Notes: generated by a model from the sequence alone, not told the origin. DNA of 64,000 nucleotides from Candidatus Kerfeldbacteria bacterium (GCA_963731735.1 CAVSWO010000002.1:756257-820256); one strand, 5' to 3'; shown: positions 9,816-38,798, numbered from the stretch's first letter. Numbers and translations: made by a program.

Positions 9816-10030
9816 GAAGGGACGAAAATACGGTTGCGGCGGGATGGGAACATCGAGTTCCCGAAAAACGTTTCGGAGCGCAGTTTACCCGCGGGAGCCA
9901 CATGATGGTTCCTCCATGAACGGGGGTGGAAAGGGCAGAAACAGGATTGTTCCCAGGCTAGCACGATCACCGGGATTAGGCGAGATCCTATTGACGGGGG
10001 AGTATGCTCGCGATAAAATTTGTATATAAG

Positions 10031-12428: not shown

Positions 12429-12599
12429 CGCCATCGCCAAAGGGCGTATACTAAAAACATTAACGGTGGCTTGGCAACGAGTGACCGCGTTTTGTATGCG
12501 CGTAGGCGATTGTCGGTGGCCAATCGCGTAGGCAGATGCATGGCAATGGCACCAACGCACCAGAAGTATGGTTTGTGTTGGCATGAAAGGAACTGAGGT

Positions 12600-13007
12600 A
12601 TGGACCTCAACAAAGTTACCCTGATCGGGAACATGGTTCGGGAGCCGGAAGGTCGCCGGTTGCCCTCGGGCCAGCAAATTACCAAGTTTAGCCTGGCGAC
12701 CAATTATGCCTGGCAGGACGCCAAGACCAAGGCCAAAAAGGAAGCGGTCGACTTCCACGACGTGATTGCCTGGGGCAAACTCGGCGAGATTGTCCAGCAG
12801 TACGTCAAGAAAGGCAGCAAGATTTACGTGGAAGGTCGCCTGCGGAATCGCAAATATACGACCAAGGACGGCCAAAAGCGGACCGCCAAGGAAATTGTGG
12901 CGGATAACATGATCATGCTTGGTCACCGCTCAACCAAGACCGGCGACCCGGTTAACCGCAAGTTGGTCAAGGAGGATGTCGATGTGGAGGACGTCAGCGA
13001 AGAATAA
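12600..13007 (+). CDS. ssb: single-stranded DNA-binding protein
   Basis: MDLNKVTLIGNMVREPE...acidic C-terminus DVEDVSEE; OB-fold SSB pattern. Confidence 0.9.
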   Translation: MDLNKVTLIGNMVREPEGRRLPSGQQITKFSLATNYAWQDAKTKAKKEAVDFHDVIAWGKLGEIVQQYVKKGSKIYVEGRLRNRKYTTKDGQKRTAKEIVADNMIMLGHRSTKTGDPVNRKLVKEDVDVEDVSEE

Positions 13008-20905: not shown

Positions 20906-21573
20906 AAACTCTCCTTCTTACCTTAACGTATCTGGTCGGAGCGGGGGAACTTCTTTTATCCGGATTTTTTTGGAAAACAAATAGCGGAAATACAATACGG
21001 CGAATCATGTCATTTTTCGCTCTTGTTACTGGATTTTGGGTTATTTCAACAGCAGCGGCATCGTATAATACATCGATTTCCGGAATTACGTGGTATCGTT
21101 CCGCACACGTTTTTGGTCCTTTTTTAGTCACCACACTTTTTGTTTTTGCCACTCAATTTCCGGTTAGTACATGGCGACTTGACAAGTTACATTATGTATT
21201 TATCTATGCGCCAGCAACACTGTTTTCTCTAATAATTATGAGTTCGACTGAGTTTTTGGCCGGATTCACTGCGACATCTACAGATTCTGGAAGTTGGTTT
21301 GGAGGATCAATATATTGGCTGTATTCGTTACTGTTATTATGTTTTTATCTGGCCACAGTTATAGTATTAGTTACAAAATACAGAATTGTAGATGGGATAC
21401 ATCGAAAAAATTTGACCATTGTGTTTGTATCCATTGTTCTCGGCGGTTTTCCGGCGATAGTAACAGATGTACTTTTTTCATTATTTACAAATGAAGGACG
21501 ATACGCGATTGTGGGTAGTCTTATGACGGTATTTTGGCTAGGTATTACGAGTTATATAGTATTGAAGAAATGA
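20902..21573 (+). CDS. standalone 7TM sensor-domain membrane protein (paralog 1)
   Basis: 223 aa and polytopic. Its N-terminus is shared with the HK at 23876 and with fragments at 20491 and 21572. Confidence 0.6.
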
Positions 21574-21767
21574 AAACTCTCCTCCTCACCCTAACCTATC
21601 TCGTGGGCGCAGGAGAACTCATCCTTGCAATTTATTTTTGGGCAACGAATTTGAATAAGTGGCATTTATATAAACCTCAACTGTGGAGCTTTTTCAACAA
21701 AAGTTTGGCTTGGGATAACGATTTATATAATCAAAAGAATGATTTATGTACCCGATTTTTGACATAG
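21572..21767 (+). pseudogene. duplicated N-terminal fragment of the 7TM paralog
   Basis: [17 protein letters not shown] repeats the first 17 aa of the 20902 gene. It runs into the next gene in a different frame. Confidence 0.4.
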
Positions 21768-22414
21768 TTTTCCTATCAGGAGTTGGTCTGGCAGAAATAT
21801 TTCTCGCATTATTTTTTTTCAAAAAATATCAAAAAAACTCGGCTATTACAGCTTTCGGATTCTTTACTCTTTCAATAGGTCTTTGGGTATTTCTTAACGG
21901 GATTGCTTACCTATTTCCTCGAGGAAGTCAAATTATCGATATCGAGGGTAGATTGATTTTTGTGGCAGCGGCATTTATTTTTCCCTTCCTATACATTTTT
22001 TTAAAAAACTTTCCACTCCCAACTTTTGTTTCAAAAATGCAGTGGTTTTGGATATTATTTCCAGCCGCGCTCATTTCTCTTACGGTCTTTTCCAATAATG
22101 TTATTATAGGTTTTGCAACTGATACTTACGCCCTTACACAGTATGGGAGTGACTTTTGGATATACACCATATATTTGGCCTTTATGTTTTCGTTAGTACT
22201 CATCGAATCTTGGCAATCGTATGTACGAAAGGATAGCGCACATACGAGAGTCCTTAAATACGTATTTATTGGTTTGCTTATTTCTGGGACTCTAGGGATG
22301 CTCAATAATTTATTACTACCATATTTGTTGCATGTTAAAGAGTTTAGCTGGCTAGGATCAGGAGCGTCCATTATTTGGTTAGCACTTATGGGCTGGGTTT
22401 TGGTAGGTGATTAA
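21746..22414 (+). CDS. standalone 7TM sensor-domain membrane protein (paralog 2)
   Basis: 222 aa and polytopic. Confidence 0.55.
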   Translation: MYPIFDIVFLSGVGLAEIFLALFFFKKYQKNSAITAFGFFTLSIGLWVFLNGIAYLFPRGSQIIDIEGRLIFVAAAFIFPFLYIFLKNFPLPTFVSKMQWFWILFPAALISLTVFSNNVIIGFATDTYALTQYGSDFWIYTIYLAFMFSLVLIESWQSYVRKDSAHTRVLKYVFIGLLISGTLGMLNNLLLPYLLHVKEFSWLGSGASIIWLALMGWVLVGD

Positions 22415-22654
22415 TGTTATGATCAAAACTCTAATAACTCATTCAGACTATAAGAGATACTTTTGTTTTGCTAAAAATTTCAGATCGGAGGCTACAATTA
22501 TTTTATCAATATTATCCTAAATGTGTTATGCTAACGAAGTATTTACTAAAGTTATATAGTCTTAAGAAGGCGAAATACTTACCTAAATAATACTTAATCA
22601 AACTTAAGAGTATAATTTCAAGACCCAGTAGTAATTTCTGAAGACTAAGCGATT

Positions 22655-23866
22655 ATGGACACTTTTGAAATCATAACAAACAAGGTTAAGTCAGAAGGAC
22701 TTCAACCAGACTTCCATGTGCTTCAATCGGGTGTTAATGAACCCGAGTGTACAATTGAAGGCAAGAAGTACATACTATTTTGCGCAAATAACTATTTAGG
22801 TTTAACTCAAAATCCTAAAGTTAAAAAAGCAGCGATTGAGTCTGTAAAAAAGTATGGAATGGGACCAGGGGGGTCTAGGGTTATTAGTGGTAACGTTGAT
22901 ATTATTGTTGAGCTTGAACAGAAATTATCTGAGCTAACCCAAACGGAGGACAGCATCACATTCCCAACGGGTTACATGGCTAACATTGCTGTTTTTAGTG
23001 CGGTAATGGATCCTGTTTTTGGAAGTATTTTTGGTGACGACGCAATCAACAATCAAGGTGGTGTGATATTTTCTGATGAAGATAACCATGGATCGATCAT
23101 TGATGGGTGTCGACTAAGTTCAGCGAAAAAGGTGGTTTTCAAACATAACAATATTGATGATTTAAATAAAAAAATTAAGTTAAATGATCTTCCAAATAAG
23201 TTAATTGTAACAGAGGGGGTATTTAGTTTAGAAGGCGAAATAAATAATATTCCGAAATATATTGAAGTTGCCAAATCGAATGGTGCAAAATTAATGGTTG
23301 ATGACGCACACGGGGTTGGTATTTTGGGAAAACAAGGAGGGGGTGTTGGAGATCACTTCGACTGTTCAGAAGATATCGATATTTATATGGCTTGCATGGA
23401 CAAAGCCTTAGGTGGTACAGGTGGATTTCTTGCTGGGAAGAAGGCTTTAATAGATTTCCTGCGAATAAGTACAAGATCATCCCTACTATCCTCAGCAATC
23501 ACAACTAGTATGGCTGGAGCAATGATAAAATCAATAGAACTAATAAGTAATGGGAGTAAGTTGCGCGAGCAACTATTTGAAAAATCAGATTATCTTAGAA
23601 GAGCTTTAAAAGAAAATGGTTTTACAATTTTGGGTGACGACAATATTCCCTCCGTTCCCCTCCTCGTTGGGAATGATGCTATTGGGGTTAGATTTGAAAA
23701 AGCCCTTTTTGAGGAAGGGATTTATCTTCCAGTTGTGCGTTGGCCCGCCGTACCATATGGCACTTCCAGATTTAGAATTATTGTGATGGCACAACATGAA
23801 AAAAAACACCTGGATAAACTAGTGGACGCGTGTACCCGCGTAGGCAAAACACTATCTATAATATAA
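22655..23866 (+). CDS. PLP-dependent alpha-oxoamine synthase family (BioF/Kbl/serine palmitoyltransferase-like)
   Basis: NNYLGL, GSRVISG, DEDNHGSIIDG, VDDAHGVG and DKALGGTGGF (Lys) motifs. Confidence 0.75.
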   Translation: MDTFEIITNKVKSEGLQPDFHVLQSGVNEPECTIEGKKYILFCANNYLGLTQNPKVKKAAIESVKKYGMGPGGSRVISGNVDIIVELEQKLSELTQTEDSITFPTGYMANIAVFSAVMDPVFGSIFGDDAINNQGGVIFSDEDNHGSIIDGCRLSSAKKVVFKHNNIDDLNKKIKLNDLPNKLIVTEGVFSLEGEINNIPKYIEVAKSNGAKLMVDDAHGVGILGKQGGGVGDHFDCSEDIDIYMACMDKALGGTGGFLAGKKALIDFLRISTRSSLLSSAITTSMAGAMIKSIELISNGSKLREQLFEKSDYLRRALKENGFTILGDDNIPSVPLLVGNDAIGVRFEKALFEEGIYLPVVRWPAVPYGTSRFRIIVMAQHEKKHLDKLVDACTRVGKTLSII

Positions 23867-23875
23867 ATACCATTT

Positions 23876-26708
23876 ATGCTTAATGCTGGGTATTTAACCC
23901 TATTTGTTGCCGTTGCGAATCTTTTGCTCGGATTTTTCGTTTTATCGCGTGGTAAATCAAAACCATTATACATTTCATTTTTTCTTTTCACTCTTGTCGA
24001 TGCAATTTGGAGCCTTACAAATTTTGTATTCGAATTCTATTCTCAATCAATATTTATATTTAGAAGTCAATACGCAACAGGAGGTTTGACCCTTGTAATG
24101 GCTCTAATATGGATTTATTACCTTATTAGGAAAGACTGGCTTTCAAAGAATGAAATTATTTCAACCACAGTTCTTGGGGTAATAATTTTTTCTATTCCAT
24201 ATCTTGGAGGACTTGTCGTGGACTCGATTTCAAAGTTACCAGATGGTAGCTATGATTTTATACCTGGACCGCTTTTTGATTTTTATAGCGGATTACTACT
24301 TATCATACTTGGCTACCTTTTCTATTTGTTGATTAGGGCTGAAAGAAGAGTGAGAGGGATACAAAAAGTCCAGCTCAGGTATGTTATTGCTGGTGTATCG
24401 ATTTTCGCAGCAGTCGCCATATCTTTTGGATTAATACTGCCCCTATTTGGCTACAGTTCGATAGTGGCATTCGATGCTCAAAGCTCGTTGTTTTGGATCA
24501 TATTAACCACCTATGCCATTCTTCGTCATCGTTTACTCGATATTAAGTTTGTACTGACCAGGTCCATTACTTATGGGATTCTCCTTACTCTCGTAACCTT
24601 ATCTTTTGTATTTATTACATTCATTTCAGGACAATTCTTTGGCAATACAACTATAAGTAGGAATATCATTGCATTTATTATCGCAATACTTATAGTTTTT
24701 GGACTCGATCCCCTGAAGAATTGGCTTTCAAGAATTTCCGATAAAATATTTTTCCAAGCCAAGGTAGACTATCAACAATTACTTCGAGAAGTTTCAGAAA
24801 TTCTTGCATTTGAGATTAGCCGTGATGAATTGATTATTAAAATTCGAGAGAAACTTCAAGAAGGATTGAAGGTTAAATTTTCCGGTATATTATTGCGCAA
24901 TCAATCCAATGGAAAAACACAGAAATTTGAAGCTCTTCAAGATCTCTTACATCAATACCCAAACCTCTCTCTCCAAAACACCAGTCCGCTCGTTCACTTT
25001 CTCCGCGAACACAAACACTACTCAATCGTTGAATCACTCGAACGGAAAATAGAAGATGCAGATGATGGGGAACGCACAGAACTCGAGACCTCGAAAGCCG
25101 AATTCGACCGCTTGGAGGCTTCTTTAGTTACGCCAATTTTTGCTCAAGGGCACCTAATCGCGATTTTAGCCCTGGGTCCAAAACTTTCTGGCGATAGTTT
25201 TTCAAACGATGACATCAACCTAATCGAAGTATTATCGCCGCAAATCGGTTCGGCTATCCAAAAAGCCAACCTGTTTGAAGAAGTCCGGCAGTTTAATATC
25301 AGCCTGCAACTCAAAGTCGACCAAGCCACCGCCCAACTGCGCGAAAAGAACGTCTCGCTTGAAACGCTGCAGCACATTAACAAGGAGATTACTCAAACGC
25401 TCGATTTCGAAAAAGTTGTTCAGCAAATCGCCGACTCGGTCAGCACCGAACTCGGTTACCAAGGCGCGATCTTGGCCTTCCTGGATGATGACGGGAAAAC
25501 GTCACGCGCGCGGGCGATTACTCATACCAAGTTGACGGAAACGGCCCTGAAGCTCTTACCGACGCATTTCAGTGAATATCACAGCGACATCACCGACCCG
25601 AAAACCCATAATTTGAGTGGCAAGGTATACCAGACCGGACAGACGCAAATCACCAACAACTTCGCGCGCGTGGTCTCGCCGCCGTTGCCGAAGCTGCTAG
25701 CCCAGACAATTCAAAAGGTGGTCGGGCATTAAATCAATGGTCTTAATCCCGATTGTATCCGAAGGGAAAACTATCGGCGTGATTGAAATCGGTACCAAGA
25801 AGGATCAAGGAAAACATCACCCAGCAAGAACTGGAAACTATGCAATCGGTGGCGGACGAACTCGGAATCGTGTCCCGAAACTTCAAACTCTTCGGTCAGT
25901 TACAAAAAACCAACCAACAACTCGAAGTTGCCAACGAAAACTTGAAAGAACTCGACCAGCGCCAAGTCCGAATTCGTGTCGATCGCTTCGCACCAATTGC
26001 GGACGCCGATGACCGGCATTATGGGCTACCTGTCGATGATGACCCAGGGCGATTTCGGTAAGATTAAACCCGAGCATCGTCGAAATTCTCCGCAACCTGC
26101 TGTCCGAATCGCAGCGCATGATCCGCCTGATCAACCAATTCCTGAATGTCTCGAAGATTGAGGCCGGCAAGTTTACCTACACTAAGAAACCGGTCCAGAT
26201 TCTGGATTTGATTACCCAGGAAGTTTCAGAGGTCAAAAAAGCGGCGGCCGATAAAGGCCTGAAACTGGTGGTCAAATTGCCGAAGACCCTACCGACGATC
26301 GTAGCCGACGGCGATAAGATTCAAGATGTTATTTTGAACCTGGTCGATAACGCGATTAAATACACGGCCAAAGGCAGCGTGACCGTCAGCGCCAGCCACG
26401 AAGACGGCTTGGTTCACGTGAAAGTCAAAGACTCGGGCGTCGGGATTAAACCGGAAGACGCGCATGAATTGTTCAATAAGTTCGTGCGTGGCAGCGGCAT
26501 CGCCCAGATTCATCCGGACGGATCGGGTTTGGGCCTGTTTATCGCCAAATCGATCATTGACGCCCACGGCGGTCGGATTTGGGTCGAGTCCGACGGCGAA
26601 GGCAAAGGGAGCACCTTTCAGTTCGTGATTCCGATTCAGCCGCCGCCCGGCTTGGAAGAAACGCCGAAGTCGGCGGCCGCCCACGTTGTTTCAACCAAGC
26701 ATACGTAA
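23876..26708 (+). pseudogene. 7TM-GAF-GAF-HisKA-HATPase sensor histidine kinase, interrupted by four frameshifts
   Basis: Protein-like segments continue across frame changes near 25735, 25800, 25960 and 26075. They include VLIPIVSEGKTIGVIEIG, AKSEFVSIASHQLRTP and the HATPase_c G-boxes. GC composition switches mid-gene at ~25250. Confidence 0.55.
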
Positions 26709-26712
26709 ATAG

Positions 26713-26760
26713 GCTCTTTCAAAGAGCGCCGTCGCGACGGCGCTTGACTTTTTTTATTTT
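26713..26760 (+). terminator. double-hairpin rho-independent terminator
   Basis: GCTCTTTcAAAGAGC then GCGCCGTCGCGACGGCGC then TTGACTTTTTTTATTTT. Confidence 0.7.
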
Positions 26761-26864
26761 CGGGACTAAGCCTAACGTAGATCATTGACAACCAAGTCCT
26801 TCTTTCGGCCCATAGATTGCAAGGCGCAATCATGAGTAGAACGGGGGCGTGAAAGGAGTATGCC

Positions 26865-27014
26865 ATGCTTACCGCCAGCGTGCATCCGACCGCCAACATG
26901 CCGCGCGTGTTGGAGAACGTGATGCGTGAAGCTGCCGAACCGCCCGAAGAAGCTCGCGAGTTCGGATGGGATGTGGACTGGGACAACGGCGTGGATCACA
27001 GCCACTCCGACTAG
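26865..27014 (+). CDS. candidate RiPP precursor peptide (49 aa, not in the ORF track)
   Basis: AAAGGAG 6 nt upstream of ATG. Product MLTASVHPTANMPRVLENVMREAAEPPEEAREFGWDVDWDNGVDHSHSD. It lies 72 nt upstream of the radical SAM gene. Confidence 0.45.
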   Translation: MLTASVHPTANMPRVLENVMREAAEPPEEAREFGWDVDWDNGVDHSHSD

Positions 27015-27034
27015 TCCTGTGCTCAGATGTAGTG

Positions 27035-27061
27035 GTGGGGAGGCGTTGATTACCTCCCCAC
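27035..27061 (+). promoter_or_regulatory. attenuator-like hairpin between precursor ORF and maturase
   Basis: GTGGGGAGGcgttgattaCCTCCCCAC, 9-bp stem, no T-tract. The maturase RBS AAGGAGG follows. Confidence 0.45.
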
Positions 27062-27086
27062 ATCTTCTCAAAAAGGAGGTGAAAAA

Positions 27087-28193
27087 GTGCATATTTTCAT
27101 CGTTAAGCCAGTTGGCTGGCGCTGTAATATCCGCTGCCAGTATTGTTTCTATCACGAGTGTCCGTTGGCCCAGGCTGGTGATCAGACGCTCATGACTGAC
27201 GACACGTTGACCCACGTGATTCGCGAAGGGCTCGCAATGAACCCGCGAGTAGCGGAGTTCGACTGGCTCGGCGGTGAGCCACTGCTGGCTGGTCTCGAGT
27301 TCTATCAGCGAGTGGTGGAACTGCAGAGTCAATTCTGCGCTCCTCACCAGCGCATCACCAATCGGGTGCAGACGAATGGAACGCTCCTGGATGACCGCTG
27401 GGTAACATTCTTCGCGAAACACCGGTTTACGGTTGGACTGAGCATGGACGGTCCAGCCGCAATCAATGACCGCTTTCGTTATGACGCAGACGGGCGCGGT
27501 ACCACCGATCAAGTGCTCGTGGCGTTGCGACTGCTCCGGCAGCATAACGTCTACCATGGCGTTATCTGTGTGGTGAATAGCCTCAATGTTCACCACCCTG
27601 ACGAAGTGCTGGAGTTCTTCGTACGTCAGGGTATCAACCGGCTGGCGTTCAACCACGCCAAGGGCCTGTTTCCCGACGGCCGACCGCTACCGACCACAGT
27701 CGATCCAGATGACTACGCGCGATTCATGTGCCGACTGTTCGATCGCTGGCTAGAGAAGGACGATCCGAACCTGGTCATCCGCCAATTCAAGAGCATTCTT
27801 CACTCGCTCATGGGTGGCCGGTACCGAATGTGCGTCCTGAGCAATCAATGCCACACCTTGTTTGGCATCGAAAGTGACGGGACGGTCTATCCCTGCGAAG
27901 ATCATCCTGGTGAGGGCTGGCAGTCGTTCGGTAATGTTCGTGACGGCGCGGCGCGGCTCCTGGCGCATCCGAACCGACTGACTTTCAAACAGAAAGTTGA
28001 TGATGCCAAGCGGGCCTGTCAATCGTGTCGGTGGTGGAACATCTGCCAGGGTGGGTGTCCCCGCGATTACTACTTCGGGGTCGCTTCCATGGGGCGCCAC
28101 AACCGTATGTGCAAGGCATACAGAACGCTCTTTGAGCACATCGTGTCCAGGATTAAGCCCTACCTGGAAACGACAGCAAGGCCGGAATCGTAG
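27087..28193 (+). CDS. radical SAM/SPASM-domain enzyme (anSME-like peptide-modifying maturase)
   Basis: CNIRCQYCFY (CX3CX2C). The C-terminal SPASM cysteines (YPCEDH, CQSCRWWNICQGGCPRD, MCKAY) are present. Confidence 0.85.
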   Translation: MHIFIVKPVGWRCNIRCQYCFYHECPLAQAGDQTLMTDDTLTHVIREGLAMNPRVAEFDWLGGEPLLAGLEFYQRVVELQSQFCAPHQRITNRVQTNGTLLDDRWVTFFAKHRFTVGLSMDGPAAINDRFRYDADGRGTTDQVLVALRLLRQHNVYHGVICVVNSLNVHHPDEVLEFFVRQGINRLAFNHAKGLFPDGRPLPTTVDPDDYARFMCRLFDRWLEKDDPNLVIRQFKSILHSLMGGRYRMCVLSNQCHTLFGIESDGTVYPCEDHPGEGWQSFGNVRDGAARLLAHPNRLTFKQKVDDAKRACQSCRWWNICQGGCPRDYYFGVASMGRHNRMCKAYRTLFEHIVSRIKPYLETTARPES

Positions 28194-29234
28194 TTACGAT
28201 TCCGGTTTTTTTATGTATTCTTGGAGTAGGTGTGCAACCCGGCGGAAACTGTCAAGAGTGACGCTACGTTTATTCTGTAATCTTTCTTGCCAGTATGGTT
28301 GAAGATGATACGCGGCGTATGTTCGCCAGGCATGTAGCATTACTTTTTTTTGTGTATTGTGTTTATGCTTCGTCTGCTTGTAGAGTTGATCGAGCGGAGT
28401 TTGTAGATATTGGCGTCCAAGGATCCCTTGTGGTACGAGACTTGATACTAGGCCTTCGTTAAGCCAAACCCAGAGAGAAGGTGAGGGAAGCGATCGAAAA
28501 AGAGTCATCTGCTGTTGGGTAAAAAGCCGCAATTTTCGTTCATATGAGGGGCGCATAAAATGCGCATGGATAATTTCGTGGATAAGAATACCTCGCATTT
28601 TTTTATTACGGCACGAGGTGCGGAATTGGAGATCGCCAGCCTCGAGGACTACCGCATCTTTACCCACGTTAGCATTGCCACCGCCAACTGGGCATGGTAA
28701 TCCCTTCGGTCGCATGAGAAGAATCAAACGAATCTCTGCTTGGGGCCGAGCTTTCGGATAAAGGATCTGGAGGTCACGCATGCAGTGTTGGACCGATTGA
28801 GACTGCCAGATATGCTCCAATACTCTTTGGGCGGTGAGGAGGCGCGCCTTCTCACCCGACCAAACTTTCTCAAAACGAGGGTGTAGCGTTTTTTTGATGT
28901 TCGCAAGTTGATCATAATCTTTTGTTGATAAAGCGAGTGCCAGCGATGGCCAGACTTCAGCCTCTGGAAAGAGCTGGAAGTACGTACCGAGAAATTGACG
29001 CGAGGTACCGAGTCCATACGTACGCATGAGTTTCCGGAAATCATGAAGCGCGCGCTGCTCTGAAGTACGTAAGGGGCCAGTCAAATGTAACCACTTTTTG
29101 TTATAGGCAGGGTTACAGGAAAAGTGCCACTCGCTTAAGTTAGAAATAAAAAAATAGAAATTCGCCTCACGGGAGCAAAAAACTTTCAATTGCATACCTA
29201 CCGTGAGTGTACTCGGACGGCTTACAAAGTTCAA
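28194..29234 (-). CDS. HExxH zinc-metallopeptidase-like protein (MA-clan, HEIIH ... WLNEGLVS)
   Basis: 346-aa ORF in an AT-rich stretch. It is a paralog of the 30773 gene. TTG start, with an alternative ATG at 29195. Confidence 0.55.
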   Translation of the reverse strand: MNFVSRPSTLTVGMQLKVFCSREANFYFFISNLSEWHFSCNPAYNKKWLHLTGPLRTSEQRALHDFRKLMRTYGLGTSRQFLGTYFQLFPEAEVWPSLALALSTKDYDQLANIKKTLHPRFEKVWSGEKARLLTAQRVLEHIWQSQSVQHCMRDLQILYPKARPQAEIRLILLMRPKGLPCPVGGGNANVGKDAVVLEAGDLQFRTSCRNKKMRGILIHEIIHAHFMRPSYERKLRLFTQQQMTLFRSLPSPSLWVWLNEGLVSSLVPQGILGRQYLQTPLDQLYKQTKHKHNTQKKVMLHAWRTYAAYHLQPYWQERLQNKRSVTLDSFRRVAHLLQEYIKKPES

Positions 29235-29954
29235 TACCTATCACGTTCATCGAAATTTACGTATACTGAGGCATATGGCTCATGTCCGTTTTTCCATCAA
29301 TCTCCGCGAGGACGCGAAAAACTGGGTGCGACTCGGTCAAATGAAACGCATGCAGCCATCAAACAGCTACTCAAACTCGGCTGTGATGTCCGAATAAACA
29401 CGTGTGTGGGATCGCATAACCTGAGTGTTATGCCAGAGTTTCTCCATTTCGTGAGCGAGGAATTCGGGATTTTGCATAGGCTTGTGCACGTCGAGCCCCT
29501 TGGGCGAGCGAAAGAGAACTCTGGACTGACTGTCGAAGACAAAGCCTTTGCCCGAGTGGTCAACCAGCGTTCTGGCAAGGTGGAGTTTTTAGATAGTCAC
29601 GACGAAGTGTCTGCTCGTGACTTTCGTCTTCCGCCATGCGGCGTCGGACAATCCATGGCATTTGTCGATGCCTATGGAAATGTTTCGCTCTGTCCAACAA
29701 TGACCCAGAATGAGTACCCAGGTTTCTTGGCGGGTTCTTTACGAAAAACGCCTTTGCAAGAAATCTGGACGCGATCTCCAACGTTCATCCGATATCGTGG
29801 CATCCAGTGCCGTGATGTCACGACCTGTCCGGCCAAAACGCAGTGCAAGGGCGGTTGTCGCAGCCACGCTTTCATTGCGACTGGCAATCCCAATGCTCCT
29901 GACCCTGGAATGTGTGCGGTTTTCCAAGATCAGCATAACCAGAACGGCCCATAA
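29190..29954 (+). CDS. C-terminal half of a second radical SAM enzyme (barrel end + SPASM) lacking the CX3CX2C core; possibly a remnant
   Basis: LPPCGVGQS..VDAYGNVSLCP..CRDVTTCPAKTQCKGGCRSHA..DPGMC resembles PqqE/MftC/SCIFF-maturase C-terminal halves. It has only a TTG start and overlaps the convergent peptidase gene by 45 nt. Confidence 0.4.
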   Translation: MHTYRECTRTAYKVQYLSRSSKFTYTEAYGSCPFFHQSPRGREKLGATRSNETHAAIKQLLKLGCDVRINTCVGSHNLSVMPEFLHFVSEEFGILHRLVHVEPLGRAKENSGLTVEDKAFARVVNQRSGKVEFLDSHDEVSARDFRLPPCGVGQSMAFVDAYGNVSLCPTMTQNEYPGFLAGSLRKTPLQEIWTRSPTFIRYRGIQCRDVTTCPAKTQCKGGCRSHAFIATGNPNAPDPGMCAVFQDQHNQNGP

Positions 29955-29975
29955 CATTGCTTGTTATGGGCCGTT
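29944..29975 (+). terminator. 14-bp perfect hairpin
   Basis: AACGGCCCATAACAttgctTGTTATGGGCCGTT followed by an AT-rich tract. Confidence 0.6.
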
Positions 29976-29992
29976 ATCTTATAATAAAAATA

Positions 29993-30766
29993 ATGTCGAG
30001 CCTTGCTCACGTTCGATTTAAACTGGTGCCGGAAAAGCTTGAGATCGATACGCTGTATGGATTTTTGTTTGAGGACCCTTGGGGATGGGGGGGTCGAATT
30101 GTTCGTAAGCATCCGAATATAAAACCAGTGCTCAAACTTACCCAAGAATCGGTCCGGATACAATATCTTCGAAAATACGTACGAGACTTTCGTCGTTCAC
30201 GCGCAGTCGAAATGCAGCGGCAACTTGAGAAGCTGCCTCGGGCCTGGGGAAGGGTTGAACAGCCGGCTTTTATCGCCCTTCAGCAACTGATTGAAACGAA
30301 TTGGCCCAAGCAGCGTCCCATACATGCCCTGATGTCGATTAACCCGATCTGTCCAAGATTTTTGCGAGAGTGGACTTTTTTTTGGTACTGGCGCTACAAA
30401 CAAAAAGATATTTTTGAAATTATTCTTCATGAATGCAGCCACTTTCTGTATTTTCAAAAATGGCAGGAAGTTTTCCCGCAAGATCGTCCACGATCTTTTG
30501 ACTCGCCGCATCTTATTTGGCATCTAAGTGAAATTCTAACCCCAATTTTACTGATGCAACCGGAGCTACAGAAATATTTACGCCAGAAACCAACTTTTTA
30601 CCGCGAGCACCAACGGCTTCGAATCAAAGGCAAGACCGCGCCAGCGTATTTTCGGGATTTGTATCATCGTTCAAGAAATCGACATGAGTCGTTTGCATGC
30701 TTTCTAATTAAGGCACGGAAGGCTATTGAACAACAAAAAAGAAAATTCGCAAACGTATATTCTTGA
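29993..30766 (+). CDS. HExxH metallopeptidase-like protein (HECSH)
   Basis: ILHECSHFLYF motif. Third member of the local HExxH paralog set. Confidence 0.5.
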   Translation: MSSLAHVRFKLVPEKLEIDTLYGFLFEDPWGWGGRIVRKHPNIKPVLKLTQESVRIQYLRKYVRDFRRSRAVEMQRQLEKLPRAWGRVEQPAFIALQQLIETNWPKQRPIHALMSINPICPRFLREWTFFWYWRYKQKDIFEIILHECSHFLYFQKWQEVFPQDRPRSFDSPHLIWHLSEILTPILLMQPELQKYLRQKPTFYREHQRLRIKGKTAPAYFRDLYHRSRNRHESFACFLIKARKAIEQQKRKFANVYS

Positions 30767-30772
30767 TTAAGC

Positions 30773-31417
30773 ATGCGTCAACAACAACCATCGCCAGTTA
30801 TCATTGCTCGAGCCTTTCAAACGCGACCCGAATTAGCGCGCTTTGCCAAACGCACGCACGCTCGTTACCAGCGATGGTTTAAGACCAAGCTGTCATTACC
30901 AACAATCGTTATTTTGCAACAGCGACGGCTGGTTCGTGAATTCTGGAAATCGGCGCAAGACGACTGGAAAGTCGGTTGGTATCGAAACAAGGTGATTTAC
31001 CTCCTTGATCAGTCGCTGGCAGAAAGAAGCCGAGGGGATTGGTACCGACTCCTTGGGCATGAACTCGCGCACCCGTTTATTAATTATGTGAGCGAAGGTA
31101 AGGCACCGCGATGGCTGAATGAGGGCTTAGCAAGTCGCTTAGCCGGGCAACGCCAGCACCGCGCGACACCCAAAGAAGTGGTGACGTTTTTTCGTCAACG
31201 AAAATCACCAAATAATTTGAATGTCTATGGTGTTGGTCGAGTTATGACCGATGAGGTATTGGCACGGTACGGCCGACAGAAAATCCTGCAATTTCTCAAA
31301 CAAATCGCTAAGACACGAACGATCTCTCTGGCTTTCCGTCAGACGTTTGGCCTCAGTTGGCACGACCATATGCGTGCGTACCAGACTAGGAACCACACTT
31401 CATTGTTGAATAGATAG
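30773..31417 (+). CDS. HExxH metallopeptidase-like protein (HELAH ... WLNEGLASRL; Peptidase_MA-like)
   Basis: LLGHELAHPFINYV followed 14 aa later by RWLNEGLA. Confidence 0.6.
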   Translation: MRQQQPSPVIIARAFQTRPELARFAKRTHARYQRWFKTKLSLPTIVILQQRRLVREFWKSAQDDWKVGWYRNKVIYLLDQSLAERSRGDWYRLLGHELAHPFINYVSEGKAPRWLNEGLASRLAGQRQHRATPKEVVTFFRQRKSPNNLNVYGVGRVMTDEVLARYGRQKILQFLKQIAKTRTISLAFRQTFGLSWHDHMRAYQTRNHTSLLNR

Positions 31418-31437
31418 GGCTGTAGTACAATTATCCC

Positions 31438-34405: not shown

Positions 34406-35665
34406 ATGTACATCACGCAGATTACCAGCCGACAAATTCTTGATTCACGCGGCCGACCGACCGTTGAATCGACCGTCCACCTGGATACCGGTATCTCGGC
34501 CACGGCGGCCGTACCCTCCGGCGCCTCGACCGGAACCCATGAAGCCTTGGAACTCCGCGATACCAAGTCGAAACGCTATGACGGGCTGGGCGTCCTGACG
34601 GCTGTCAAAAATGTGACCGGACCGATTGCCAAGGCCGTCAAAGATCAGGATGTTCGGCAGCAACGAGCGATTGACGAACGTATGATCAGTTTGGATGGGA
34701 CGGTCAATAAATCAAAACTCGGTGCCAACGCGATTTTGAGCGTTTCCCTGGCGGTCGCGCGGGCGGCCGCGGCCCTGGAACGGGCGCCGTTGTATGCTTG
34801 GATCCAGCAGGTCTATGATTTTCCGGCGGTCCGGGCCGACCAGTTGCCGCGGCCGATGATGAACGTCTTAAACGGCGGGCGGCACGCCGACACAGCCCTG
34901 AAAGTTCAGGAATTCTTATTGTTACCGGACGGGAAATCGACGGCCGAACAAATTGAACGCGGGGTCCGGATTTATCGGGCCTTGGGTGAACTGCTGGCCG
35001 AAAAAAAACTCCGGACCATGGTCGGCGATGAAGGCGGCTACGCGCCAGCCCTGACCGAAACCACGGTCGCGCTCGATTTTCTCGTCAAAGCTATTACCCA
35101 AGCCGGCTACCGGGCGCCGAAAGACGTGGCGCTGGGTATGGACGTGGCCGCTTCTGAATTCTTTACCCCGGCCACCGAACGCTACGCCTTCGGCCAAACC
35201 ACCGGCGGCCTGAGTGCCGACGGCATGATACAAACCTTGCGGGATTGGGTCCAAGCCTATCCGATTGAAACGTTGGAGGACGCGCTGGCCGAAGATGACT
35301 GGACTGGCTGGCAGGCTTTGACCGAGGCGCTGGGAAATCGGACGACCCTGATCGGCGATGATTTGTTCGTGACCAACGTGCACCGGTTGGAACGCGGGAT
35401 TGATGCCAACGTAGCCAACGCGATTTTGATTAAACCCAATCAAGTCGGCACCCTCACCGAGGCGATTGACGCGGTGGTCAAGGCCCAGGCGGCCCAATAC
35501 GGCGTGATCGTGTCCCATCGCTCGGGTGAAACGAATGATGACTGGATTACCGATATCGCGGTGGCGGTTGGGGCCCGGTTCCTGAAAGCCGGCGCGCCGG
35601 CTCGGGGAGAACGGGTGGCCAAATACAATCGCTTGCTGGCGATTGCCGATGCTCTACAGACATGA
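34406..35665 (+). CDS. eno: enolase
   Basis: ITSRQILDSRGRPTVE..SGASTGTHEALELRD. Confidence 0.95.
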   Translation: MYITQITSRQILDSRGRPTVESTVHLDTGISATAAVPSGASTGTHEALELRDTKSKRYDGLGVLTAVKNVTGPIAKAVKDQDVRQQRAIDERMISLDGTVNKSKLGANAILSVSLAVARAAAALERAPLYAWIQQVYDFPAVRADQLPRPMMNVLNGGRHADTALKVQEFLLLPDGKSTAEQIERGVRIYRALGELLAEKKLRTMVGDEGGYAPALTETTVALDFLVKAITQAGYRAPKDVALGMDVAASEFFTPATERYAFGQTTGGLSADGMIQTLRDWVQAYPIETLEDALAEDDWTGWQALTEALGNRTTLIGDDLFVTNVHRLERGIDANVANAILIKPNQVGTLTEAIDAVVKAQAAQYGVIVSHRSGETNDDWITDIAVAVGARFLKAGAPARGERVAKYNRLLAIADALQT

Positions 35666-37206
35666 GTGATCCGCGCCCACTGGTCATGATCATCCTGGAC
35701 GGCTGGGGCATCGCTCCGGATAGTCCGGGGAACGCGGTCACGCGGGCGAAAACCCCAACCCTGGACAGTTGGCGATCGAAGTATCCGTCGACCCAGCTCA
35801 AGGCCAGCGGCCAAGCGGTCGGCTTAAGTCCGCGCCAAGACGGCAACTCCGAAGCCGGGCATATGAACTTGGGCGCCGGTCGAGTCGTCAAACAAGATGC
35901 CGAACGGATTTCCGCCACCATCGCGGACGGTCGCTTTTTCCGGAATCCAGCCTTTCATGCCGCTATCCGGCACGTCAACAAGTATAATTCCGCCCTGCAT
36001 ATCATGGGCATGCTCGGCAGCAAGCAAAGCGCCCACGCCGACCCCGATCACTTGATGGCGCTGTTGATGTTGGCCCAGCAGGCACGGTTGCAACATGTTT
36101 GGGTGCATTTGTTTACCGATGGTCGGGATTCGCCGCGCTATTTCGCGCGTGAAATGCTGGAACGGATGCTCCCGCACTTCGGTGACGCCCGGGTCGGGAC
36201 GGTGATGGGCAGATTTTACGGCATGGATCGGAATAAAAATTGGGAACGAACGGAACTGGCGTATAACGCGCTGCGGCATGGCCAAGCCGACTATCATGTG
36301 GACGATCCCTTGGACGCCATCACCCAGGCCTACAATCGCGGCGAGAGTGATGAATTTATCAAGCCGACCATCGTCAACGGTTTTCATGGGATGCAAGAAA
36401 ATGATTCGATCATTTTCTTTAATCTGCGGTCCGATCGGGCGCGGCAAATTGCCAAAACCTTCGTGCAAACCGATTTCGAACGCCAGAACGCGGTCACCGG
36501 CGGATTTACCCGCCGCGATCCGATTCATCCGCTGTTCGTGTCGATGACCGATATTGGTCCGGACCTCGGGGATATGTTGAGCGCCTATCCGGCCGTCGAA
36601 TTGACGGAGACGCTCCCGATGGTGCTCAAGAACTTCCGCCAACTCTATATCGCCGAAAGTGAAAAATACGCCCACGTTACCTACTTTTTTAACGGCGGAT
36701 ACGCGCAGCCGGTGGCCGGCGAGCAACGGCGGATGGTGCCCTCGGCCTCAGTGCCGAATTTCGCGAACACGCCCGGCATGCAATCGCCGAAAATTGGTGA
36801 AATCATCCGGCACGGCATTCACGGGCACCAGTACGACGTCATCGTGGCTAACTTTGCCAATACCGATATGGTTGGCCATACCGGCAACCTGGCGGCCGGC
36901 ATTGCGGCGATGGAAATTACCGATAAAATTTTACGGGCGGTGGGACGCGAAGTGCTGGCGGCCAACGGCACCTTGATCGTGACGGCTGACCACGGCAACT
37001 TGGAAGAAATGCTCAATCTGCAAACCCAAGCGGTTGATACCGAGCATTCGAATAATCCGGTGCCGTTCCTGCTGATTGACCAGCAGTACCTGGGCAAAAA
37101 ACTGCGAACCGGTGGCGAGTTAGCGGACGTGGCGCCGACGATTTTGGAAATTTTGCAGGTCAAGCAACCGGACGCCATGACCGGCCGGTCATTACTTCAG
37201 GCATGA
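35662..37206 (+). CDS. gpmI: 2,3-bisphosphoglycerate-independent phosphoglycerate mutase, copy 1
   Basis: MIILDGWGIAP, SEAGHMNLGAGR and TADHGN motifs. Confidence 0.9.
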   Translation: MSDPRPLVMIILDGWGIAPDSPGNAVTRAKTPTLDSWRSKYPSTQLKASGQAVGLSPRQDGNSEAGHMNLGAGRVVKQDAERISATIADGRFFRNPAFHAAIRHVNKYNSALHIMGMLGSKQSAHADPDHLMALLMLAQQARLQHVWVHLFTDGRDSPRYFAREMLERMLPHFGDARVGTVMGRFYGMDRNKNWERTELAYNALRHGQADYHVDDPLDAITQAYNRGESDEFIKPTIVNGFHGMQENDSIIFFNLRSDRARQIAKTFVQTDFERQNAVTGGFTRRDPIHPLFVSMTDIGPDLGDMLSAYPAVELTETLPMVLKNFRQLYIAESEKYAHVTYFFNGGYAQPVAGEQRRMVPSASVPNFANTPGMQSPKIGEIIRHGIHGHQYDVIVANFANTDMVGHTGNLAAGIAAMEITDKILRAVGREVLAANGTLIVTADHGNLEEMLNLQTQAVDTEHSNNPVPFLLIDQQYLGKKLRTGGELADVAPTILEILQVKQPDAMTGRSLLQA

Positions 37207-38798
37207 ATCAAACGCCCAAGCGACAACCGGCGGTGTTACTGATCCTCGACGGATTTGGCGTGGCGCCGCCTTCGCGCGGGAATGCGATTGCCCTGTCGAA
37301 GACGCCGAACTTGGACGGCTTTATGGAAAGCTACCCGACGGTCACGCTCCAGGCCTCCGGCGAGGCGGTTGGCTTGCCCTGGGGCGATATGGGGAATTCG
37401 GAAGTCGGGCACGTAACCCTGGGTTCCGGCAAAGTCTTGTACCAGGATTTACCGCGCATAACCCGTGCGATTGTTGATAAATCTTTTTTTACGAACCCGG
37501 CGTTCTTGGAAGCGATCGACGCGGTAAAAAAGCATCGCAGCACAATGCATCTAATCGGCATGTTCAGTTCGGCCGGTGTCCACAGTTTTGACGAACACGC
37601 CTATGCGCTGCTGGAGCTTTGCCAGCAGAAAAAAGTCTCTCGGGTCTGCGTGCACGTCATATTGGACGGCCGGGACAGTCCCTATAATAGCGGGTTGGAA
37701 TTCGTGAAAAAACTGCAGCGCAAAATGCAAACTATCGGCCTGGGCCAGATCGCCACTATTTCGGGCCGCTACTACGCCATGGACCGCGATAATCGCTGGG
37801 ATCGGACCGGCTTGGCCTACGCGGCGATGGTCGAGGGACAGGGCCCGACCAATGATGATCCGGTAGCGGCAATCACCGCTTCGTACAAAGCGGGCGTCTA
37901 CGACGAACAATTCGAGCCAACCGTCATCACCCAAAACGGCCAGCCGGTAACGACGGTCGGGGACCAGGACGCGGTCATATTTTTTAATTATCGCTCCGAC
38001 CGCGCTCGACAGTTAACCAAGGCCTTTGTCCTGCCGGGATTTGAAAAATTCCCGCGCCCAAACTACCTGAAGGATTTGGTCTTTGTGACCATGACGGAAT
38101 ATGAAAAACACTTGCCGGTCAGCGTCGCCTTTCCGCCGGAGACGGTGACCGAACCGCTGGCCAAGGTCATCAGCGATGCCGGCTTGCACCAACTCCATAT
38201 TGCGGAAACCGAAAAGTACGCGCACGTCACCTTCTTTTTTAACGGCGGGATTGAGCAACCGTTTCCGAATGAAGAGCGGATATTAATTCCCTCGCCCTCA
38301 GTCACGTCCTACGATCAGAAACCCGACATGAGCGCCCGAGTAATTACCGAGCGACTGCTGGAACAGCTCAACACTGGGAAGTTCGGATTTCTGGTTATCA
38401 ACTTTGCCAATCCCGATATGATCGGTCATACTGGAAATATTCCGGCCACCGTCAAAGCGATTGAAACGGTAGACTGGTGCCTGGGTGAAATTGTGGAAGC
38501 CGTTTTATCGATCAATGGCTTCGTGATGATCACGGCTGATCACGGCAACGCCGAAACGAAAATTGACAGTCAGACCGGCGCGGTCAATAAAGAACACTCG
38601 GCCAATCCGGTCCCGCTGGTCACCATTGCCAACGATTTACCACCCGACCTGGTGGCCCAATACCATGCGCCGATGCGCGACCTCTCCGGCCAGACCCCGG
38701 TCGGCGTACTGGCCGACGTGGCCCCGACCCTGCTGCAGATGATGGGCCTGCCGATTCCGCCCAGCATGACCGGGCGTCCAATCTTCCCAAATCTATGA
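37203..38798 (+). CDS. gpmI: 2,3-bisphosphoglycerate-independent phosphoglycerate mutase, copy 2 (tandem paralog)
   Basis: LLILDGFGVAP, SEVGHVTLGSGK and TADHGN motifs. Confidence 0.9.
   Translation: MNQTPKRQPAVLLILDGFGVAPPSRGNAIALSKTPNLDGFMESYPTVTLQASGEAVGLPWGDMGNSEVGHVTLGSGKVLYQDLPRITRAIVDKSFFTNPAFLEAIDAVKKHRSTMHLIGMFSSAGVHSFDEHAYALLELCQQKKVSRVCVHVILDGRDSPYNSGLEFVKKLQRKMQTIGLGQIATISGRYYAMDRDNRWDRTGLAYAAMVEGQGPTNDDPVAAITASYKAGVYDEQFEPTVITQNGQPVTTVGDQDAVIFFNYRSDRARQLTKAFVLPGFEKFPRPNYLKDLVFVTMTEYEKHLPVSVAFPPETVTEPLAKVISDAGLHQLHIAETEKYAHVTFFFNGGIEQPFPNEERILIPSPSVTSYDQKPDMSARVITERLLEQLNTGKFGFLVINFANPDMIGHTGNIPATVKAIETVDWCLGEIVEAVLSINGFVMITADHGNAETKIDSQTGAVNKEHSANPVPLVTIANDLPPDLVAQYHAPMRDLSGQTPVGVLADVAPTLLQMMGLPIPPSMTGRPIFPNL

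Follow-up and report, generated by a model that had tools for sequence, protein, structure and literature searches.

What is encoded by a 49-codon open reading frame (ORF) that directly precedes a radical S-adenosylmethionine (SAM) gene, and do the two genes form a biosynthetic system? This question was raised by a 64-kb (64,000 nt) stretch of DNA from Candidatus Kerfeldbacteria bacterium (GCA_963731735.1 CAVSWO010000002.1:756257-820256), hereafter called the window. An earlier note on this DNA had proposed that the short ORF is the precursor of a RiPP (a peptide made on the ribosome and then modified post-translationally) and that the adjacent radical SAM enzyme, which carries a SPASM domain, is its maturase, the system being a candidate undescribed one. 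Comparison with two curated libraries, Pfam and NCBIfam (June 2026), and with related loci (designated L001, L002, and so on) bore out this central idea. The locus very probably holds a genuine peptide-maturase system. That its two genes work as a RiPP operon, joined by a convergently oriented partner gene for an HExxH protein (HExxH-A) and operating by the full mechanism proposed below, chemistry and partner role included, is a reading that we favor with moderate confidence.

The ORF at 26865-27014 translates to MLTASVHPTANMPRVLENVMREAAEPPEEAREFGWDVDWDNGVDHSHSD, and its C-terminus, EFGWDVDWDNGVDHSHSD, contains no Cys. The ORF, its ribosome-binding site, the Cys-free C-terminus, a following hairpin without a T-tract, and a gap of 72 nt to the next gene were all found where the earlier note had placed them. 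The peptide has a net charge of -5 and consists of a leader with the motif VLENVMREAAE and a core, GWDVDWDNGVDHSHSD, with W-x-[D/N] and H-x-H-S motifs. Relatives were sought by searching 5.8 billion proteins with the radical SAM enzyme of the window. Five close relatives were obtained (66, 58, 51, 46, and 42% identity), followed by matches at ≤39% among hundreds of proteins resembling the anaerobic sulfatase-maturating enzyme (anSME). In all five close relatives, a called ORF of 48 to 58 codons was located directly upstream of the radical SAM gene; conservation of the short ORF beside homologous radical SAM genes, which had been named in advance as a test of the proposal, was thereby found. 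The leader motif appeared in the variants VLENVMREAAE, VVQNAICEAEQ, and IITAALEEATQ, and the core common to the clade was W-[DGSE]-[DVNQ]-[DN]-W-D-[ND]-G-[VP]-[DTE]-H-x-H-[SC], with W39, H45, and H47 invariant in the alignment of clade peptides.

A search with the peptide profile added two further members, one of which was at L008, a locus of 35% GC on a 585-kb contig. The L008 peptide also precedes a radical SAM gene, whose product is 40% identical to that of the window. In all, a short ORF was located upstream of the radical SAM gene in the six closest relatives as well as in L008. A 15-residue core, WDVDWDNGVDHSHSD, was identical in the window, L005, and L008, loci that range from 35 to 57% GC. 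In the three pairwise comparisons of the DNA coding for this core, 5, 8, and 11 differences were counted, all of them synonymous and none non-synonymous. Furthermore, 18 related peptides were used to build a precursor profile, with which all 5,579 short ORFs in the window and the related loci were screened. The profile retrieved 24 ORFs at E < 0.01, each adjoining a radical SAM gene; within the window, 26865-27014 scored E = 2e-13 and the runner-up ORF E = 0.37. Since a metagenome scan with the precursor alignment recovered two known loci only (L047, identical to L008, and L048, identical to L003), the narrow clade of the window peptide stays at about eight members. No sigma-70 promoter was detected upstream of the peptide gene by a promoter scan. 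As judged from these substitutions and neighbors, the comparison shows 26865-27014 to be a genuine gene, translated and under strong purifying selection.

These observations bear directly on the possibility that the short ORF is a chance frame and that its neighbor codes for an ordinary sulfatase maturase. The top match is indeed anSME, and several database relatives at 33-36% identity carry the name anaerobic sulfatase maturase. This possibility was, however, already contradicted by core differences that are synonymous only and by a short ORF that adjoins the radical SAM gene in every close relative. The sulfatase motif C/S-x-P/A-x-R...TG, sought by regular expression in all six frames of the window and of 48 related loci (510 kb in total), was not matched. 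In addition, the score of the enzyme was below the anSME cut-off, and in a rough neighbor-joining tree the radical SAM enzymes linked to HExxH-A grouped together, apart from proteins named anaerobic sulfatase maturase; the one exception was a protein from a metagenome-assembled genome (MAG) labeled Fermentithermobacillaceae. The window enzyme fell within a Patescibacteria clade of this tree. Grouping with sulfatase maturases, or a sulfatase gene alongside, would have counted against the earlier note by its own account, and the tree and the 510-kb motif scan revealed neither. We regard a chance frame beside an ordinary sulfatase maturase as scarcely credible.

The enzyme had been described as anSME-like, with a CX3CX2C motif and a full SPASM domain. 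The Pfam matches and the conserved cysteines agreed with this description: those of CX3CX2C (C13, C17, and C20) and eight SPASM cysteines (C249, C255, C270, C311, C314, C320, C324, and C342) were invariant in eight sequences. Its GTG start codon lies 72 nt beyond the peptide stop codon, and the protein begins at CX3CX2C, with no separate leader-recognition domain. Among NCBIfam models, the anSME equivalog TIGR03942 fitted best, but its score of 325.6 bits fell short of the cut-off (349.45), as did those of other anSME models (233.9 versus 441 and 196.5 versus 484). DynA was the second-best model (236.5 versus a cut-off of 450), and DarW and DarE scored 182.2 and 168.9, each versus 650. For the three-residue cyclophane-forming enzymes (3-CyFE), scores and cut-offs were 122.8/450 (XyeB), 161.8/445 (YhhB), 139.6/310 (GrrM/OscB), 149.3/370 (FxsB), and 138/425 (AmcB). 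The closest solved structures were anSME 4K36/4K37 (E = 3e-63), with 4K37 aligned over the full length of the enzyme, and then the cyclophane synthase ChlB 9GM3 (5e-30). A sacti- or ranthipeptide reading was ruled out by cores without Cys, and a His-Xaa-Ser system by an HxsB score of 71 bits versus a cut-off of 370.

Precursors related to that of the window were found either upstream of the radical SAM gene or between it and the convergent HExxH-A gene. About 24 of them share the leader motif, with acidic cores of 11 to 33 residues, examples of which are ...GWDDQWDHWDQLGSSDPGWGDVGD..., ...TGWDNWPDWDNGPDFPNWEDIGG..., ...SDWDQWNNWDDLGGDDPGWGDISD, and ...GEWEQNWDQTGGDEWGETVP. The 22 cores analyzed contained 58 Trp residues and one Cys, and their net charge ranged from 0 to -9. 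At position +2 after Trp, Asp was found 25 times, Asn 16 times, and Gln 6 times, so that Asp and Asn together occupied 41/58 (71%) of these positions versus ~31% of core residues. Position +1 was Asp in 29/58. Aromatic-X-X motifs, by which triceptide cores are recognized, were thus present across the 22 cores, and in the window clade H-x-H is conserved as well.

Based on these features, we propose that the radical SAM enzyme would bind the leader directly, since it has no N-terminal RiPP recognition element (RRE) extension. A 5'-deoxyadenosyl radical would abstract the C-beta hydrogen two positions after an aromatic residue, and that carbon would then join the ring. The expected products would be three-residue cyclophanes at W-D-V / W-D-N and possibly at H-S-H. 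One or two Trp cyclophanes are proposed because aromatic-X-[D/N] matches the W1-X2-X3 of triceptides and the Trp-Asn and His-Tyr precedents of dynobactin. DarE and DynB, which are anSME-like, make Trp-Lys, Trp-Asn, and His-Tyr links (PMC10288494). In triceptides, the radical SAM enzyme joins the ring to the C-beta of the third residue of W1-X2-X3, and the His-based rings HAA, HNR, and HTK are also formed (PMC11499958). A WVN ring has been documented (bioRxiv 10.1101/2024.12.16.628070).

The enzyme might instead retain anSME chemistry and oxidize the Ser or Cys after H-x-H to a formylglycine-type aldehyde, forming no cyclophanes. Seven clade peptides have Ser at that position and one has Cys (HSHS, HNHS, and HQHC), an interchange typical of anSME substrates; however, the wider family has no conserved Ser/Cys and always has Trp-x-[D/N], and the recognition motif C/S-x-P/A-x-R is absent from all peptides. 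The enzyme itself points both ways. TIGR03942 is the best match, near its cut-off, anSME is the closest structure, and an acidic residue beside a SPASM Cys, which we take to be the counterpart of anSME D277, is kept as E271/D272, whereas the family groups apart from named anSMEs in the tree. Also, the anSME-like enzymes acting on peptide substrates that have been characterized to date form cross-links (PMC10288494). We consider retained anSME chemistry very unlikely and ring formation the better account of the enzyme.

As judged from gene order, the conserved unit is the peptide, the radical SAM enzyme, and one HExxH protein (family A) encoded convergently with the enzyme. A genome scan seeded with family A alone identified 36 loci in named Patescibacteria MAGs; an anSME-like radical SAM gene was located within 600 nt of 22/33 HExxH-A genes, 18 of them tail to tail as in the window. 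HExxH-A matched no Pfam model at E ≤ 1, Peptidase_M1 and Peptidase_MA_2 included, and no NCBIfam family at E ≤ 0.01. Its homologs were many, all unnamed, and nearly all from Patescibacteria: an exhaustive profile search gave 956 cluster representatives at E ≤ 1e-3, of which 288 also reached E ≤ 1e-30. The window protein has the motifs GGGNAN (184-189), HEIIH (219-223), and WLNEG with E260. H219, E220, H223, and E260, the Glu of WLNEG, were invariant in 63 sequences, in keeping with the earlier statement that the HExxH proteins carry a peptidase motif. An N-terminal motif, ANxFFFISNLSEWHFSC..YN..W (residues 24-48; window ~29090-29165, minus strand), showed extreme conservation (W36 and H37 did not vary among the 63 sequences), and ANxFFFISNLSEWHFSC has no counterpart in M1 peptidases. 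A substrate lid, a second metal site, and leader binding are candidate roles for this motif.

The AlphaFold model of HExxH-A was confident, with a predicted local distance difference test (pLDDT) score of 91. Foldseek alone returned nothing significant for this model. The predicted structure has a thermolysin-like/M1 catalytic-domain fold and resembles the catalytic domains of M1 aminopeptidases. In M1 enzymes, the Glu of GxMEN binds the free amino terminus. About 30 residues ahead of HExxH, HExxH-A has a conserved strand, GGGxAN, where M1 enzymes carry GxMEN, and the Glu is replaced. Because the residue that binds the amino terminus is absent, HExxH-A is suggested to be an endopeptidase. A peptidase function is plausible on the predicted model, and in the proposed pathway HExxH-A would, after modification, most likely remove the leader as a metal-dependent endopeptidase (M1-like fold, HExxH...E). 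A conserved catalytic Tyr was also sought at M1-like spacing; Y318 is >90% conserved, but the residue is Arg in the window and His in L005, and we make no claim for it.

HExxH-A could alternatively be an Fe(II)/alpha-ketoglutarate oxygenase that beta-hydroxylates Asp or His inside rings made by the radical SAM enzyme, the leader being removed by another protein or by host proteases. HExxH proteins that are joined to cyclophane synthases or lie next to them have a zincin-like fold and reportedly hydroxylate Asp and His only once the ring has been made (PMC12636437, citing Morishita 2024). The HExxH domain of ChlBH acts in this way on cyclophanes of the Y-D-R type. In PflC, a single HExxH enzyme both oxidizes and hydrolyzes (PMC12636437). 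The Asp found as X2 in half of the Trp motifs and a 2-His-1-Glu set that could hold iron as well as zinc fit this role. However, HExxH-A was not matched by the curated IPR026337 / TIGR04267 family (NCBIfam E ≤ 0.01) or by the ChlH sequence; ChlH was not retrieved at E ≤ 10 by a PDB profile search with HExxH-A. Also, HExxH-A is closer in its resemblance to M1 peptidases and carries the M1-like WLNEG third-ligand motif and the GxMEN counterpart, and in L003, where family A is absent, a protease-like gene takes its place: a transglutaminase-core (cysteine-protease-like) gene follows that of the radical SAM enzyme. The gene content of the window is anaerobic and fermentative (PFOR, acetate kinase, and phosphotransacylase), so that the host looks like an anaerobic fermenter, and to our knowledge Patescibacteria generally have neither a source of alpha-ketoglutarate nor oxygen. 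We hold the hydroxylase role rather unlikely and retain leader removal as the preferred role of HExxH-A.

The RNA elements of the locus were also examined (Table 1). The intercistronic stem-loop has a fold energy of -28.7 kcal/mol (z = -2.15). A strong stem-loop was found between the peptide stop codon and the ribosome-binding site of the radical SAM gene in 7/7 loci, with differing sequences; its position was thus conserved in all seven relatives, as expected from the earlier note. The radical SAM gene (+) and the HExxH-A gene (-) abut tail to tail with a spacer of zero, and the Pro-Glu-Ser at the C-terminus of each protein is explained by the 14-bp hairpin, whose arms supply the final codons of the two genes. 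This hairpin and that at 26724-26745 flank the peptide-enzyme pair. The intercistronic hairpin would probably set the ratio of peptide to enzyme expression, and the hairpin at 28178-28209 would end the operon.

Table 1. Features of the peptide-maturase locus and its flanks, in window positions
Feature	Position	Strand	Basis or remark
Broken gene for a sensor histidine kinase with multi-pass membrane region, GAF, HisKA, and HATPase_c	23876..26708	+	Pfam GAF and HATPase_c
Terminator-like hairpin, 9 bp, then T-run	26724..26745	+	Consensus scan; closes kinase gene just upstream of peptide gene
Ribosome-binding site AAAGGAG	26851..26857	+	7 nt ahead of precursor ATG, read from sequence
Precursor peptide gene, 49 aa	26865..27014	+	Homologous ORFs upstream of close radical SAM homologs
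Intercistronic stem-loop GTGGGGAGG, 9-nt loop, CCTCCCCAC	27035..27061	+	9-bp stem, T-tract absent
Radical SAM/SPASM enzyme, 368 aa, GTG start, anSME-like, predicted maturase	27087..28193	+	Pfam Radical_SAM and SPASM
Terminator-like hairpin, 14 bp, then T-run	28178..28209	.	Terminator scan; at tail-to-tail junction of radical SAM and HExxH-A genes
HExxH family A protein, 333 aa from ATG 29195 (longest ORF to 29234)	28194..29195	-	Conserved partner of radical SAM enzyme
N-terminus remnant VRFSINLREDAKNWVRLGQMKRMQ of second HExxH-B-type gene	29278..29376	+	tblastn with L003 7197-7907 protein: 73% over 33 aa
5'-truncated radical SAM/SPASM gene, mycofactocin/heme-type subfamily	29346..29954	+	TIGR03962 positions 137-331 of 339
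HExxH family B protein, HECSH and downstream SEI Glu	29993..30766	+	Homologs in L003, L007, L016, L017, L027, L030, L035, L044
HExxH family C protein, HELAH-x16-E in WLNEGLA	30773..31417	+	Peptidase_M1 E = 5e-4, Peptidase_MA_2 1e-3, both below cut-off
Receiver-only response regulator, 142 aa	31438..31866	+	Pfam Response_reg 1e-13

The earlier note had treated the maturase and three MA-clan peptidases as a unit and the three HExxH proteins as paralogs. The minus-strand gene with HEIIH..WLNEGLVS and the later genes with HECSH and HELAH..WLNEGLA were present, but paralogy was not recognizable pairwise, and families A and B were linked at the profile level only. On that profile comparison, family B is a remote homolog of family A (hhalign probability 84%, E = 7e-6), and its HExxH and downstream Glu are conserved across eight other loci. 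HExxH-C, which bears a weak likeness to MA-clan metallopeptidases, gave negative pairwise and profile tests against families A and B, has weak homologs in L012 and L029, and yielded a single-sequence AlphaFold2 model with a pLDDT of 44.8, which was discarded. Nor did the proposed unit hold together: some loci contain family B again, the link of family C is only weak, and in the syntenic locus L002 HExxH-A leads almost directly to the response regulator, with this insertion absent. The gene order indicates that an insertion or replacement of ~2.1 kb, which is in part decayed, brought in the SPASM fragment, HExxH-B, and HExxH-C at a later time and lies outside the conserved core, and, as judged from the remnants, that it truncated both the resident gene and the incoming radical SAM gene. 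The remnant of the HExxH-B-type gene comprises its first 27-33 codons; the full form is in L003, and L002 keeps the C-terminal part only.

The ORF with a C-terminal-only SPASM protein of a different subfamily, reported earlier, was confirmed by its TIGR03962 match. It matched SPASM only in Pfam; its longest ORF is 29190-29954, similarity starts upstream of the first ATG at 29430, and the region upstream is occupied by other genes. Since the match starts at profile position 137, the fragment has no CX3CX2C SAM-cluster motif, and from its sequence this 5'-truncated gene is probably a pseudogene. Its supposed 45-nt overlap with the minus-strand gene was an artifact of taking the longest ORFs; the gene calls of L001, an independent (Logan) assembly of the same locus that is 99.94% identical to the window, are equivalent to 28194-29195 and 29430-29954. 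The AT-rich patch reported around the minus-strand gene exists as a lower GC content, although the difference is modest (47-50% versus 55-58% for the radical SAM gene).

A receiver gene and a decayed kinase gene flank the locus, as the earlier note had it, the former by Pfam and the frameshifts of the latter by tblastn. The kinase gene lies in at least four reading-frame pieces (23876-25732, 25783-26061, 25976-26161, and 26118-26708), and tblastn with the intact L002 kinase placed it in two frames that overlap at 25716-26083. The receiver orthologs of L002 and L003 hold the same relative position. Homologous kinases adjoin the cassette in 9/42 non-redundant loci. The recurrence of the cassette beside or inside a kinase/receiver pair suggests that the pair regulates its production or senses the peptide. 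The split of the kinase gene (25716-26118) coincides with a change in GC content, and both real decay and an assembly error are possible there; an independent assembly breaks at window 26535. The window is a GC mosaic, with 35-37% at 21000-24800 versus 55-62% elsewhere, and the kinase gene straddles the boundary. The mosaic seems to be a trait of the lineage and not a mis-assembly because L002 has the same mosaic (0.32-0.66 per kb).

Damage of this kind raises the possibility that the cassette is a decaying relic without a product in this genome, the family being functional elsewhere. The kinase is frameshifted, the second radical SAM gene is truncated, one HExxH-B-type gene is cut to 27-33 codons, and the AAA_33 gene of four relatives is missing. 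HExxH-B is also frameshifted in the independent assembly, where L001 has one T fewer in the T-run at 30376; the window copy is intact. By contrast, the frames of the precursor, the radical SAM enzyme, and HExxH-A are intact with every invariant residue kept, the ribosome-binding site, hairpin, and terminators are in place, and the core has the same sequence as in L005 and L008. The frameshifts could also be assembly errors at the sharp GC change. We judge a relic quite unlikely and return to a functional operon as the favored reading.

Several points nevertheless weigh against that reading in its full form. The nearest characterized relative of the radical SAM enzyme is a sulfatase maturase and not a cyclophane synthase, and the cyclophane-maturase models of NCBIfam were matched significantly, yet none to its cut-off. 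The type and position of the modification are read from motifs and from relatives at ≤35% identity, and the W-x-[D/N] signal is partly compositional because Asp makes up 24% of the cores and occupies half of the +1 positions. The role of HExxH-A may be broader, since about 1/4 to 1/3 of its genes have no adjacent radical SAM gene. HExxH enzymes in RiPP clusters may be oxygenases or bifunctional (PMC12636437). Finally, with the kinase frameshifted, the AAA_33 gene of the relatives absent, and the locus partly decayed, activity in this genome is not assured.

Recurrent neighbors were counted in the 42 non-redundant loci. Besides the sensor kinase (9/42), a SAM methyltransferase was found in 9/42, HExxH family B in 8/42, an ABC exporter in 6/42, and an AAA_33 kinase-like protein in 3/42. 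An AAA_33/AAA_18 P-loop kinase-like gene lies beside the radical SAM gene in L002 (9117-9638), L006 (2203-2727), L007 (2731-3258), and L003 (6052-6582) and is absent from the window. It is placed directly after the radical SAM gene in L002 and L006, after HExxH-A in L007, and after the transglutaminase-core gene in L003. This protein might phosphorylate the Ser-rich tail of the peptide. The cassette was found in Saccharibacteria-labeled MAGs, Paceibacterota, Portnoy-, Wolfe-, Campbell-, Yanofsky-, and Roizmanbacteria, and WWE3.

Individual loci showed further arrangements. At L007 135-521, tandem precursor genes precede one radical SAM gene; their cores are ...HDWEDSPDHQHCVR and ...PLWDQNWDDGPEHQHSS, the first with Cys where others have Ser. 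At L008 7393-12638 (JGI Ga0315285_10000001), two cassettes lie side by side, with the peptide gene before the radical SAM gene in one and after it in the other, and three more radical SAM genes are located within 20 kb. A GNAT N-terminal fragment occurs once on each side of the first L008 cassette (9751-9906 and 12507-12638), a hint of cassette mobility. At L003 1-3830, an inserted radical SAM/SPASM, NUDIX, and NDK block is flanked on each side by a copy of the kinase gene's 3' end. Elsewhere in the window, 35662-38798 is a compact fermentative block of PGK, enolase, two successive cofactor-independent phosphoglycerate mutase genes, PTAC, acetate kinase, and PFOR. No tRNA gene was found in the entire 64 kb.

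In kind the system is familiar: a radical SAM/SPASM RiPP, probably with cyclophanes. As far as sequence comparison goes, what appears new is the precursor family, the enzyme branch closest to sulfatase maturases, the conserved M1-like partner family, and the restriction to Patescibacteria with recurrent two-component coupling. Neither Pfam nor NCBIfam has a model for the peptides or for families A and B. A Trp/Asp-rich radical SAM peptide family of Patescibacteria was not described in the full-text literature searched, which is weak evidence of novelty because most subscription journals lie outside that literature. Patescibacteria (candidate phyla radiation, CPR) have tiny genomes and are usually called nearly devoid of natural-product biosynthesis, and the cassette recurs across many of their lineages. 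It represents a branch of the sulfatase-maturase lineage turned, on our reading, into a peptide maturase, offers a testable role for family A, unannotated and ~950 clusters in size, and provides about two dozen natural acidic cores as ready substrates. A cyclophane on Asp or Asn, if true, would extend radical SAM chemistry, and the two-component link, if functional, would raise the prospect of peptide signaling in episymbiotic bacteria. A bolder idea, which we offer as speculation and think doubtful, is that in the acidic Trp-cross-linked peptides Patescibacteria have their first peptide signals; an enzyme family that branched from the sulfatase maturases would make them, a miniature M1-like protease would process them, and the multi-pass kinase/receiver pair would sense them. 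If true, it would mean agr-like communication between cells or between symbiont and host where secondary metabolism is thought to be almost nil, possibly with an Asp C-beta cross-link of a type hitherto unseen.

We compared the system with known ones. The closest family is anSME (TIGR03942; PDB 4K36-4K39), with which the window enzyme shares a length of ~370 aa, three cysteine sets for [4Fe-4S] clusters, identically spaced in SPASM, and the absence of an N-terminal peptide-recognition extension. It differs in its score below cut-off, the lack of a nearby sulfatase or C/S-x-P/A-x-R substrate, a dedicated small peptide that has a leader, and its separate clade. The daropeptide/'bamabactin' systems (DynA/DynB, DarE, and DarW) likewise use anSME-like radical SAM/SPASM enzymes on Cys-free, Trp-containing C-terminal cores, and the Trp-Asn C-C and His-Tyr N-C links of dynobactin (PMC10288494) match the W-D-N and H-S-H layout of the window peptide. 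However, daropeptides are proteobacterial, with DarBCD-type exporters and basic/aromatic cores that target BamA, whereas the window system has strongly acidic cores, a Patescibacteria-like host, and an HExxH partner. The daropeptide core W-x-W-x-K/R or WN..H.Y is absent from the window core, WDVDWDNGVDHSHSD, and no ABC exporter was found between 17.7 and 42.2 kb of the window.

Compared with the M1 leader peptidases of RiPPs (AplP/EryP of class III lanthipeptides) and M1 aminopeptidases, HExxH-A is one third the size and comprises the catalytic domain only, with an added novel N-terminal helical part that bears ANxFFFISNLSEWHFSC. It has GGxAN for GxMEN, and the spacing from HExxH to the Glu is 36 residues versus 18 in M1 enzymes. 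In agr loci, genes for modified peptides lie beside a polytopic sensor kinase and a response regulator, a layout that the window resembles; AgrB/AgrD homology is absent, however, and the receiver of the window has no output domain and its kinase is frameshifted. Triceptide systems (XyeB/XncB, YhhB, HaaB, HtkB, GrrM/OscB, and AmcB) share with the 22 cores the repeated aromatic-X-X pattern, although the window enzyme stands closer to anSME than it does to any of the 3-CyFE and Asp is the commonest third residue in the window family. ChlBH/FxsB-type systems also couple a cyclophane-type radical SAM enzyme to a zincin-like HExxH protein, with Asp and His in the ring motifs (PMC12636437); ChlH appeared in the fold search with HExxH-A, and ChlB is the second closest solved radical SAM structure to the window enzyme.

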